Positions 3,001 to 6,000 of a stretch of DNA of 39,804 nt are shown piece by piece (positions within the stretch are counted from its first letter, which is position 1; every line of letters begins with the position of its first letter). Source of the stretch: a virus (Duplodnaviria > Heunggongvirae > Uroviricota > Caudoviricetes). Location: positions 1 to 39,804 of IMG/VR virus record IMGVR_UViG_2734482775_000002, one strand, 5' to 3'. Position numbers: made by a program.

Positions 3001-6000
3001 CGCGTAGCGCCACCTCTACTGTGCAGGTAACAGTCTCAGGATCGAACGACTGAATGATGCCGGGCATCGCTACGCGCATCTGGGTAGACACCGAATCGGC
3101 TATGGCCTGCGCGGTCTGCTGCTCGCCGCCGATCTGTGATTGAGTTGGAATTGGCATAAAAACTCCATAAAAAAACCAGCCGAAGCTGGTTTGGTATCAA
3201 TTACTAAGCTACATCAGTGTGAAGTAAGGCTTTTCCGCTGCAATGGCACACATTCACAAGGTGTATTAGGATATGTTTGCAACAAGTAAGCATTAAAAAT
3301 CAATTTCAGCCATGAAGCCGCCATAGAGTGGACCTGCACCATCGCATTCTTGACTACAGGAGTAACAAATGGGATTTAGATTTCGCAAAAGAATCCGGAT
3401 TGCGCCCGGACTCGCGATCAACATTAGCAAAAGTGGAGTAAGCACTTCGATTGGTGGTAAAGGTTCCACCATTAACATCGGGAAAAAAGGCGTAAAGATG
3501 ACAAATGGCCTTCCCGGCACGGGGCTGTCGCATACCACTAACCTTTACTCTCCCGGGAAATCGACAGAAAAAAAACAACTTACTCATAAGCAAAAAATAA
3601 TTAGAAACATCCTGTTCGTAATTATTGTGTTTATTATAATTAAAGCTCAATATTTTTGACGCATGCCCGCCTATCTGGCGGGCTATTTTACTTTTCGGCA
3701 GTCGTATGTTGCATACTGACGCGGCGCATTCATGCTGGCTTGCAGCCACTGAGCGTTGAGAATGGCTTTGCCGTTGCGCTTGATGTACTCAAGCCCAACC
3801 CAGCGGCCGGGTTGGTCAGTAGCCATGCGCCAGTCAATCTTGATGTTGTCGTAGTCTTCTTTGTCTTTCAGGAAGGTGACTTTCTGAGATTCAGGCTTGG
3901 CGCCATTTATGCGAAACCAACCATCGTCTGGGCCAGCGCTTAACCTAAACGGCCCGCATTGCCCGTCAGCAAAAGCTGAAGATGAAAATATAAATGCTGT
4001 AGCTAATAGCACTTGAGTTAGTTTCACAATTATCCTCATGGCAACGCCTTGTCTTTAGCGGCATTGTTCAGCATGTCACGACTGCCACGCGCAAAACACA
4101 TCAAATCCATGTACCACGCCTGACCTCTGGTGTCGCCAGTATAGTCGATAGCTTTGACGATATAAACGCCATCCGTCGCAATGCTGGCAGCCTGTGACGT
4201 CGTGCCGGTCAGCACACGGTTGCCGTTCTCTTCTGTTTCGGTGATACGCCCGGGCGACTGTGCGATTTCGCTATTGCCGAGCGCGGCGCGGTACACCGAA
4301 GCCTGATCGAGCTGGATAAGACCATTAATACGGATGTTTGGGTTTATCAGGCACCGCACGTTTACTCCGCCGCCCATCGTTTGTTGCGGCATACCGATCA
4401 GGCCAGTATCGGCATTCAACGCAATGGCTTCGTGAATATATTTATCCTCCGGCACCATCTGGACCTGACCATCCACCAGCTGCCATGTCGCTTTGCACTG
4501 CGCAGCAATATTATCCATCACGTTACGGGTGGATGAATAAATCGCACGGCCACGAGGAAACACGGTATCAGGAAAGTCACCGGTAATGCCCTGCGTCACG
4601 CCGAACGCGTTGAAATCCTGCATCGTCGCCCGGTGCAGGTCCGCAACGGTATAACCAGCGGCAAGCGTGGTGATGGTAGTCGCGTAGAGGAACGCTTCGT
4701 GGTTACTGATGGCCTGAATCAGCACCCAGGAATCGGTGATGTTGTCCTTCCCGGTGACGGTGAAGCGAATATCACCGTCAAATATCAGGCCGTAGTTCTG
4801 ACCGTTCACCTGCCCTACCTGGTCTGGTGAAATCTCCCGGGCGACACCAACCTGGCTCGCATCAACATCCGGCGCAATACCGTCATACCCGGCAATGATG
4901 CGAATTTTTGCAAACTCCTGCCCCAGTATCTTGTTCGTGGTATCGGTCGAAAGGTTGTAAATTTTCACGTTCGCCACGCGTGGCCAGCGTGTGTCTGCCC
5001 ACTCGATCTGGAACGTGACCTTAAAGTCAGACAGGGAAACGCCCTGCCCGTTCTGGTCCAACAGTTGCAGCTCAAAATGGCGCATCCAGTTAAGAGACAT
5101 TTCTACTCCTGCACGAAAATGAGGTGGCTGTATGTGCCGAGGTTGGTTTTGGTGGGCTCGTCCGGTGCGCCTACATCGCAGCCAACGAGCAGCGCCCCGT
5201 TAATACCTAGTTGAGGATATTGCTCAAGAAGATTTACACCGGTTACCAGCGGCACGCCAGAAAGAAGCGGTTCGCCACTGCTATCTTGTACATCCAGAAT
5301 CCAGCCAGCAGAATCACGCCAAATGACTCTCAGCGTGTATGTTGTCTCTGCTAACTGAATGCGAAATAGCTGGTTATCCGGCGATAAAGGGATTTCAGTT
5401 ACATTCATTGGATACCTATAGAGTTACCAAGTCTGGTTCCTTTTAGTCCATCAAACCACCCTGTTGACTTAATTACCGATTCATTTACTGGGGTGGTGGA
5501 TTTCGTCCCGGAATTCTGCACCGCCGATGTGCTGACGCCATCCTGCATATCTGATTTATCTGCAACGCTAACGCTCTGCGTTTGCGACATGATCACTTCA
5601 CGCAGGGTAAGCGTGCAGTTCAGCACGTTCTCGCTGGTTTTGTCCGTTGTCACCTCGATGGCTCGCACCAGCATATTGCTGTACACCCGCTTTCCGGTCA
5701 CTACATCGAACGGCACCCGAGAGGACTGGAGATCCAGTAGTTGCTGATAGGTCTCTTTCGGGCTAAGTCCGGCGCTGAGGCCGATTGACGATGTATCAAT
5801 GAAGTCCAGCAACGAACCGCCACCTGCGAAGCCGCATTCCATCGTGACTTCGCTGGGGCGCTTATACGCATGATCGGCGATGAAACCCGACGCGCTATTC
5901 GTTGTTGGCTTCTCCACCGGGTGCTCAGTAATTTCGAGCGCATCAGAATGCTTTTCGGAAACGACCACGCTGGGGATCAGCAGGCCAATTCGCCGGGATT

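Follow-up and report, generated by a model that had tools for sequence, protein, structure and literature searches.

The stretch studied here, called the window throughout, is the IMG/VR virus record IMGVR_UViG_2734482775_000002 at its full length of 39,804 nucleotides (nt), a Caudoviricetes prophage stretch with its late genes on the minus strand. Between its baseplate hub gene and its central spike gene lie two further genes, one for a secreted protein of 118 amino acids (aa), here named pos1, and one on the opposite strand for a 96-aa protein with a DUF4236 domain. We hold, with about even confidence, that this junction would be an accessory-gene hotspot with two positions, encoding non-virion envelope proteins that act in superinfection exclusion or defence. 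Position 1 (3683-4039) would be the seat of pos1, a small Sec-exported beta-barrel protein kept by the whole lineage. Position 2 (about 3193-3683) would be a swap-slot, its present cargo being a putative antisense moron that encodes the tail-anchored DUF4236 protein. The four genes concerned are:

4036-5100, minus strand: baseplate hub, 354 aa, upstream border of the hotspot (phrog_196 'baseplate hub', E-value 3e-83)
3683-4039, minus strand: pos1, 118 aa, secreted (PHROG 3443)
3369-3659, plus strand: DUF4236 protein, 96 aa (Pfam PF14020)
2519-3157, minus strand: central spike, 212 aa, downstream border of the hotspot (Pfam gpV-type N-domain, E-value 2.1e-41, and Apex motif)

The original prediction, an earlier reading of the same DNA, had proposed that two genes interrupt the tail operon between hub and spike. 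Both open reading frames (ORFs) are present in the sequence, the identities given to hub and spike are upheld by the profile matches listed above, and the interruption by non-baseplate genes is borne out by comparison with the minimal myophage Pam3, in which hub gene gp19 and spike gene gp20 are adjacent and the baseplate consists of six components only (PMC9942802). Because these genes adjoin in Pam3 and six proteins suffice, both positions are extra to the canonical minimal baseplate. Neither pos1 nor the DUF4236 protein matches a baseplate protein of the Pam3 set, unlike their neighbours (Dit_like, Pam3_gp18, hub, spike, sheath initiator, Baseplate_J, Wedge1). The hub, which also matches Pfam E217_GP41 weakly, is syntenic with the genes for the Dit-like protein, plug, spike, sheath initiator, and Baseplate_J. 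GC content is 0.41-0.45 over 3100-3700 as against 0.53-0.60 in the flanks.

A single two-gene insertion, as first proposed, is contradicted by the relatives. Similarity search opened 20 related loci in E. coli genomes and sequenced phages, 17 of which were compared gene by gene, among them Citrobacter Omnitron, Klebsiella ST340-VIM1phi10.1, Mulock, RCIP0034, Salmonella SEN34, and Yersinia YP3 (L numbers denote other loci compared here). A pos1 homologue (35-99% identical) directly follows the hub in all but one of these 17 loci, and only the segment 3' of pos1 is swapped. The exception is E. coli M172-1, to which a separately found Hafnia locus can be added; here an unrelated lipoprotein or secreted protein stands in the place of pos1. 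This replacement is the one recorded in loci L019 and L031. When one genome per species was scanned, the hub was immediately followed by pos1 in 23 of 24 loci, and 75 complete IMG/VR loci likewise have it after the hub. With a range from E. coli to Yersinia, Klebsiella, Serratia, and Pantoea, pos1 is a lineage-wide resident after the hub and not part of one insertion. An obligate partnership of pos1 and DUF4236 was considered and rejected, as each can be found where the other is missing and DUF4236 is combined with many different pos1 types.

The variable slot comprises only about 500 bp between the pos1 stop codon and the hairpin preceding the spike, because homology between the window and its relatives is lost at 3175-3192 and sets in again at 3684-3698, a pattern common to 14 relatives. 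Its size varies from empty (63-85 bp) in some relatives up to 1.8 kb in others; empty slots occur in Rahnella, Pantoea, and IMG/VR relatives, including L045 and L058. Compared across related prophages, this gpD-to-gpV junction, where defence or exclusion functions had been suspected, does hold Phd/Doc, PD-Lambda-1, or PDC-S42 in some of them. The cargo was located as follows:

L046:3106-3701 (Yersinia aldovae) and L002:2412-3232 (E. coli): Phd with Fic/Doc
L061:3406-4635 (Erwinia oleae): PD-Lambda-1, E-value 4.8e-83
L066:10438-11307 (Pantoea ananatis): PDC-S42, E-value 1.7e-36
L050:10433-11582, L062:10454-11639, and L065:10400-11553: HEPN-like gene pair
L057:10362-11147 and L010:3943-4743: first gene of the HEPN-like pair alone

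The HEPN-like pair is a recurrent two-gene cargo, a protein of about 250-270 aa and then one of about 130-137 aa that has a weak HEPN-like match (PADLOC HEPN_IX, E-value 0.003). Pfam returned no family for the two HEPN-like proteins and one large partner scanned (L050, L062); the pair may be an uncatalogued toxin-antitoxin or defence pair. Further cargo includes EACC1-like proteins and many small proteins with signal peptides or transmembrane (TM) segments. Because the cargo turns over and includes Phd/Doc, PD-Lambda-1, and PDC-S42, position 2 qualifies as a defence or conflict hotspot. Another recurrent cargo, of 145-148 aa, combines an N-terminal TM segment with a Cys-rich C-terminus of the form CxxC...GHPGEGK.CP.G.C.C (L008:3833-4279, L018:694-1131, L049:10362-10799).

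Prophages of the P2 and P4 type carry hotspots in which a fixed junction between conserved phage genes accommodates cargo that turns over, including defence systems. The hub-spike slot resembles these in the presence of PD-Lambda-1, PDC-S42, and Phd/Doc, and differs in being situated within the block of baseplate genes. Of the marks of a moron in the sense of Juhala and Hendrix, three are found here: DNA that related phages lack, a deviating GC content, and an own terminator.

Turning to the resident of position 1, pos1 matches phrog_3443 with an E-value of 8.8e-46 (residues 7-118 on profile positions 4-114 of 115), and a homologue in L003, 76% identical, carries the PGAP name 'STY1065/STY2022 family phage-derived protein'. 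Searches of Pfam, NCBIfam (release 20), and PADLOC gave zero matches. The signal peptide proposed earlier is well supported: a basic start and a hydrophobic core lead to AFA|D, and the signal peptide as well as two invariant cysteines (C28, C114) recur in 50 of 50 aligned homologues. The AlphaFold2 (AF2) model is an all-beta, eight-stranded barrel with a predicted local distance difference test score (pLDDT) of 85.7. Comparison of the pos1 profile with PDB sequences yielded noise only (nanobodies, a weak avidin match), and neither a family hidden Markov model (HMM) match nor a close barrel match links pos1 to the MliC/PliC-type periplasmic lysozyme inhibitors. The family comprises 133 clusters at 90% identity, whose named members all belong to the Enterobacterales, and 60 representatives at 50% identity, as obtained by a profile search of 1.84 billion proteins; a few large proteins matched in that search are repetitive surface proteins and were judged spurious relatives. 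Pairwise ratios of nonsynonymous to synonymous divergence (dN/dS) of 0.05-0.28 place pos1 under purifying selection. On these features, pos1 is probably Sec-exported, periplasmic, and disulfide-bonded.

Some family members depart from the short secreted form. GTG-start lipoproteins of 296 aa with the lipobox LLVSGC carry the pos1 barrel as their C-terminal domain (L011:1184-2074, L042:1942-2832, also L055 and L057). The PGAP/RefSeq call of a pseudogene for the L011 copy was therefore rejected, as the gene is an intact fusion of this kind. RefSeq lists the pos1-lipoprotein of one genome as a truncated pseudogene, and gives that of the second genome as a hypothetical protein shortened to 123 aa. 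An intact orphan with signal peptide and both cysteines is chromosomal and lies outside any phage module in Pantoea sp. C3 (L064:9977-10327). A small lipoprotein gene (8911-9267) adjoins this orphan.

The original prediction had also described pos1 as translationally coupled to the hub gene. The ATGA overlap itself is real, the hub stop codon (4036-4038) overlapping the pos1 ATG (4037-4039). Coupling as a conserved property does not hold, because the two genes of the relatives are separated by 1-12 nt without overlap. An equally good start of pos1 is the GTG at 4027-4025, four codons downstream, whose Shine-Dalgarno sequence GAGGA is better than that of the ATG.

In two genera pos1 is multiplied. 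Seven copies stand between hub and spike in Serratia aquatilis (L047:5853-10741), and four in Pseudescherichia vulneris (L048:628-2848), the latter array being found again in a second, independent contig (L132:2356-4576). The Pseudescherichia array is built from a tandem unit of about 625 bp, each pos1 copy being preceded by a hub 3'-end remnant of about 68 aa. C-terminal halves of the copies are homogenised within an array, and the first hairpins differ.

Arrays, fusions, and orphan bear on whether pos1 could belong to the virion. Its absence from the particle is the best explanation of the sequence data and forms part of the joint reading to which we gave about even confidence. A baseplate component or hub-assembly chaperone, the least likely of the rivals and in our estimate very improbable, would account for the strict synteny of pos1 and hub across the lineage and for the co-divergence of the pos1 body with both the hub (rho 0.68-0.79) and the N-domain of the spike (rho 0.63). 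It is hard to reconcile with a cleavable signal peptide and a Cys pair, which point to the periplasm, whereas tails assemble in the cytoplasm. Lipoprotein-fused alleles, the replacement of pos1 by unrelated exported proteins in L019 and L031, multi-copy arrays, the orphan, and the absence of pos1 from the solved Pam3 baseplate likewise speak against a structural role.

The evolution of pos1 has features of a conflict gene. Between prophages whose flanks are 93-97% identical, its alleles differ with dS>1, which indicates allele replacement rather than drift by point mutation. The differences concentrate in the signal peptide and in the first hairpin after the first cysteine. Two hypervariable segments face each other across the gene border:

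3902-3958, minus strand: first beta-hairpin of mature pos1, CGPFRLSAGPDDGWFRING, where alleles, and likewise the paralogs of an array, differ most
4036-4083, minus strand: C-terminal tail of the hub, SRDMLNNAAKDKALP plus stop codon, with recombination breaks at about 4085

The hub tail consists of the last 15 or so residues after the conserved YMDLMCFARG. It occurs in discrete types, and these are paired with discrete types of the pos1 hairpin across genera. For example, the tail ...LNNAAKDKALP goes with the hairpin CGPFRLSAGPDDGWFRING, and LQ(S/T)N..LNRT(F/Y) with ..LGTS..NDGWARING. Agreement between clusterings was computed over 96 distinct tuples from all loci. Hub tail and pos1 hairpin reached an adjusted Rand index (ARI) of 0.57 and an adjusted mutual information (AMI) of 0.73, compared with an ARI of 0.09 and an AMI of 0.24 for the hub tail and the 60 hub residues directly before it, and 0.27 and 0.47, respectively, for the pos1 hairpin and the rest of pos1. 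A single tail/hairpin type was found on up to seven hub-body clusters, and one exception to the pairing was seen (L065). Cluster agreement was used in place of a global Mantel test, whose rho of 0.08 for hub tail and hairpin is uninformative, as distances between tails of 12-15 aa saturate. Given this agreement and the spread over up to seven hub bodies, the final hub codons travel together with the signal peptide and first hairpin of pos1 as a single small mosaic cassette.

The cassette pattern is compatible with a cognate pair of hub tail and pos1, and equally compatible with pos1 travelling together with its own translation-initiation region. Linkage alone could explain it, because the elements lie only about 100-130 bp apart. 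A match between pos1 allele and spike-tip allele was considered too and rejected, since one pos1 allele adjoins both 212-aa and 245/246-aa spikes. Orphan arrays of toxin tips and immunity genes are known from contact-dependent inhibition (CDI) and Rhs loci. The present case is reminiscent of them in that each Pseudescherichia pos1 copy follows a displaced hub 3' fragment and in that the variable segments of hub and pos1 change in concert. It differs in that the hub is not a toxin, that hub tail and pos1 are separated by the short distance just given, and that the pairing is known from sequence only.

As to position 2, the 96-aa protein had been described as DUF4236-like with a C-terminal membrane anchor, and both assignments proved sound. 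Pfam HMM search gave 73.6 bits against a cut-off of 27 (E-value 1.8e-20), residues 3-55 matching profile positions 1-54 of 55. In the AF2 model (pLDDT 81.5), a six-strand beta-meander (6-60) is followed by a low-complexity linker and a C-terminal helix (73-95). The hydrophobic stretch covers residues 76-92 with only four residues after it, and the first 75 residues contain 14 K+R versus 1 D+E. By this layout, which is common to dozens of homologues of 90-110 aa, we infer a tail-anchored inner-membrane protein with its domain in the cytoplasm. The gene is under purifying selection (dN 0.016, dS 0.291, ratio 0.06, against a DNA relative 85% identical).

Several diverged lineages have a DUF4236 gene in this slot that converges on pos1, namely Klebsiella phages of the Wanchaivirus type, two other lineages of E. 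coli prophages, Hafnia, and Serratia fonticola. In the diverged lineages that bear it, identity to the window is 61-64% for the hub, 40-41% for pos1, and 55-62% for DUF4236. The gene is thus no recent arrival, having diverged in step with its neighbours at the same place and in the same orientation. Sixteen of the 75 complete IMG/VR loci contain it, antisense to the late operon in every one. Three short elements accompany the gene and its slot:

3350-3362, plus strand: invariant 13-mer TTGACTACAGGAG, including the DUF4236 Shine-Dalgarno sequence, identical in all DUF4236-carrying loci compared for it (L001, L011, and L020-L022)
3665-3683, plus strand: GC-rich hairpin with T-run, the DUF4236 terminator, at the right edge of the slot
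3173-3192, minus strand: terminator-like hairpin with a T7 run at the left edge of the slot, 10-12 nt upstream of the spike ATG

The 13-mer TTGACTACAGGAG is unchanged across these diverged lineages, while synonymous sites of DUF4236 differ. Analogues of the 3665-3683 hairpin with its T-run were found in L020, L021, and L022.

With the slot included, eleven different DUF4236 contexts were sampled. Seven of them are phage tail modules in which the gene stands beside tape measure protein (TMP), hub, or tip genes, most of the proteins having a C-terminal TM segment. The tail-module contexts and the positions of such genes are:

enterobacterial phages: hub-spike slot
Pasteurella Pmp2: after the hub
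Pseudomonas syringae B728a: between gpK and gpI
Leclercia: between TMP and gpM, antisense, beside a small signal-anchored two-Cys protein
metagenomic siphophage: between tail chaperone and TMP
C. difficile phiCD146: between tail chaperone and TMP
Acinetobacter Ab11510-phi: followed by a lipoprotein, upstream of a very large ORF
L026:6001-6294, L032:6001-6276, L036:6001-6276, L023:4001-4642, L024:4001-4324, and L025:3974-4303: coordinates of DUF4236 genes in such tail modules of unrelated phages

The remaining contexts are chromosomal, one of them adjoining a type III CRISPR-Cas locus. In lambda-like and other siphophages and in the Pasteurella myophage, tail-module DUF4236 genes often adjoin a small exported two-Cys protein or a lipoprotein.

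A known counterpart is HK97 gp15, a proven inner-membrane exclusion moron located in the tail operon beside the TMP gene, with deviating GC content and its own terminator, whose exclusion depends on the tail of the incoming phage (PMC3594210). DUF4236 genes of several phage types occupy a junction of this kind, and the chaperone/TMP junction is the very place of gp15. The two are unrelated in sequence, gp15 being YebO-like and having its TM segment at the N-terminus, whereas the DUF4236 protein is predicted to be tail-anchored with a cytoplasmic beta-meander. Its gene is moreover antisense to the operon, and an exclusion role would be assigned to it by analogy.

Two other functions were weighed at this point. 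Instead of blocking DNA entry, the DUF4236 protein might act on the membrane as a toxic effector in the manner of abortive-infection or addiction systems, which we consider unlikely. Its slot is shared with Phd/Doc and other toxin-type cargo, one homologue neighbours the type III CRISPR-Cas locus mentioned above, and a small tail-anchored protein whose modelled six-strand meander is open could oligomerise; yet the genes lack a conserved adjacent antitoxin-like partner, are mostly single genes inside tail modules, and have no PADLOC match. That one or both genes are lysogenic-conversion factors for envelope fitness or virulence, like lambda Lom or Bor, and unrelated to phage conflict, appears to us decidedly unlikely. 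Two envelope proteins in moron position would fit this, as many morons are of that kind (PMC3594210), and so would the gut Enterobacterales as hosts. Against it, conflict genes predominate among the cargo of this slot, the cassette links the diversity of pos1 to the tail of the hub, a structural protein of the phage, and DUF4236 is tied to tail modules across unrelated phages.

The hairpins permit a view on expression. DUF4236 had been described as bracketed by hairpin terminators. Both hairpins exist and the one at 3665-3683 terminates DUF4236, but the one at 3173-3192 is a terminator of the late strand and does not belong to DUF4236. Eleven of 12 relatives have an equivalent hairpin with T-run, independently of the cargo they carry, and two of the stem pairs are compensatory. 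The spike Shine-Dalgarno sequence sits within or just after its T-run. To have a terminator within an operon under Q antitermination is the classic layout of a moron (PMC3594210), and the window encodes a Q-like antiterminator together with the lysis genes:

22485-23291: Q-like antiterminator (DUF1133 and Phage_antitermQ)
21603-22214: ORF6N-domain protein
20771-21130: lambda S-type holin (Phage_holin_3_1)
20291-20767: 158-aa ORF at the expected place of the endolysin, with no Pfam match
19915-20307: Rz-like protein, weak match (DUF2570)
19752-20096: Rz1-like LysC

A conserved late-strand terminator combined with a Q-like antiterminator implies transcripts that start upstream without Q, i.e., prophage expression of pos1 and of cargo on the same strand. 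We infer such expression from the arrangement of the sequence elements: transcripts not modified by Q would stop at the terminator (3192-3173) before the spike, and late transcription would read through. The phage itself is best explained, as part of the same evenly balanced joint reading, as a temperate myophage of the SEN34/Brunovirus and Wanchaivirus type with a minimal baseplate and a Q-antiterminated late operon. It joins lambdoid regulation with a minimal myophage tail.

The same operon structure underlies a different proposal for pos1, namely a late periplasmic factor that serves the producing phage, either by masking or modifying the receptor against loss of progeny on debris or by aiding egress. 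We regard this as improbable. In its favour, pos1 is co-oriented with the hub gene and abuts or overlaps it, so that expression with the late operon is certain. Some pos1 alleles are, in addition, predicted outer-membrane-type lipoproteins like T5 Llp, whose proposed role is a receptor masking that keeps progeny from being lost on debris. With T5 Llp and phi80 Cor, pos1 shares export and an encoding gene beside tail-tip genes; most pos1 alleles differ from them in being soluble periplasmic proteins, and there is no homology. As to egress, neither pos1 nor DUF4236 matches a lysis family, and the holin/endolysin/Rz/Rz1 cassette lies elsewhere (19752-21130). The conserved late-strand terminator implies non-antiterminated transcription through the region, and diverged paralog arrays and an orphan chromosomal copy are more easily understood as host protection.

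If the hotspot encodes exclusion proteins as we favour, pos1 and the DUF4236 protein would act on incoming phages at the step of tail penetration or DNA entry. pos1 would act in the periplasm, as do T4 Spackle or P1 Sim, and the DUF4236 protein at the inner membrane, as do HK97 gp15, T4 Imm, or P22 SieA, with its basic beta-meander facing the cytoplasm. Both the prophage expression and the exclusion activity of the two proteins are proposed here on sequence grounds. T4 Spackle is a small signal-peptide protein with one disulfide that inhibits, in the periplasm, the tail-tip gp5 lysozyme of an incoming phage (PMC7677548). Likewise, pos1 is small and secreted, has a conserved Cys pair, and is genetically tied to hub and spike. 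The hub is a plausible periplasmic target, since in Pseudomonas phage E217 it remains at the tip of the tube once the spike is lost and is thus exposed in the periplasm (PMC10329688). The differences are considerable, Spackle being an alpha-helical bundle encoded by an early gene of a virulent phage, and pos1 a modelled eight-stranded beta-barrel encoded in a late operon. With its all-beta model and PDB sequence matches at noise level, pos1 does not belong to the Spackle family.

Several observations weigh against exclusion or defence as the function of the two genes. A scan with the sigma-70 consensus revealed no promoter for DUF4236 or pos1, promoter-like sites being no commoner than in shuffled sequence; the invariant 13-mer with the Shine-Dalgarno sequence was the only element recovered. 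pos1, co-oriented with the hub and tightly packed, may be made only late in lytic growth, and late-only synthesis would fit exclusion by a lysogen poorly. Both predicted folds are generic, and PADLOC-DB v2 gave zero matches at E<0.01 for either protein, although it does match PD-Lambda-1 and PDC-S42 among the slot cargo of other genomes. Sharing a slot with defence genes is circumstantial evidence for an exclusion function. Finally, distances of the pos1 hairpin and of the TMP SLT domain were not correlated (rho 0.14, p 0.19, n=16, a weak test), so that pos1 as an inhibitor of that domain is unsupported.

A narrower version of the exclusion mechanism seems to us possible but rather doubtful. 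It makes pos1 a type-specific periplasmic neutraliser of tail tips of its own lineage, whose hairpin would recognise the hub tail, and adds the DUF4236 protein as a second layer at the inner membrane. On this view, the part of the hub recognised is one that persists at the tube tip when the spike has been shed. The two partners would be 'key and lock' of a cassette that recombines as a whole, and cassettes that have been displaced would pile up in orphan arrays and widen the exclusion spectrum, comparable to the orphan immunity arrays of CDI and Rhs loci. DUF4236 would represent an exclusion family common in tail modules and not recognised as such before. The hub of Pseudomonas phage E217 is gp41 and its tail tip gp43, gp42 being unmentioned in the main text (PMC10329688). 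From this numbering, a non-virion gene between hub and spike may possibly be more widespread.

Morons, exclusion proteins, and prophage defence hotspots are already known kinds. Literature searches on DUF4236, PF14020, STY1065, and STY2022 returned nothing relevant, and no description of the hub-spike location, the behaviour of the pos1 family, or the recurrence of DUF4236 in tail modules was found in the searchable literature. If the interpretation is true, the junction would be a previously undescribed cargo hotspot in the baseplate block of widespread enterobacterial prophages and a place to mine for defence genes, and the DUF4236 and PHROG 3443 / STY1065 families would receive their first functional hypotheses. 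From the hub-tail/pos1 cassette and the arrays follows a model, open to direct testing, in which type-specific exclusion is directed at the tube tip. Such exclusion would bear on the way contractile-tail phages cross the periplasm and on the prediction of cross-resistance between prophage carriers and therapeutic or temperate phages.

The hotspot is embedded in a tail gene block whose remaining members are:

6031-8298, minus strand: TMP with SLT domain
5405-6031, minus strand: Dit-like tube initiator
5103-5408, minus strand: Pam3_gp18-type plug
2162-2515, minus strand: wedge subunit (sheath initiator in relatives)
962-2161, minus strand: Baseplate_J
285-965, minus strand: DUF2612 / Wedge1

The 3' part of the spike gene, encoding the C-terminal tip (window 2516-2708), is mosaic and unalignable with most close relatives, whose spikes measure 245-246 aa versus 212 aa in the window. 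In the early region, a YdaT_toxin domain (E-value 5e-11) was found in a 140-aa ORF (29899-30321) near a helix-turn-helix (HTH) repressor-like gene (30657-31076).

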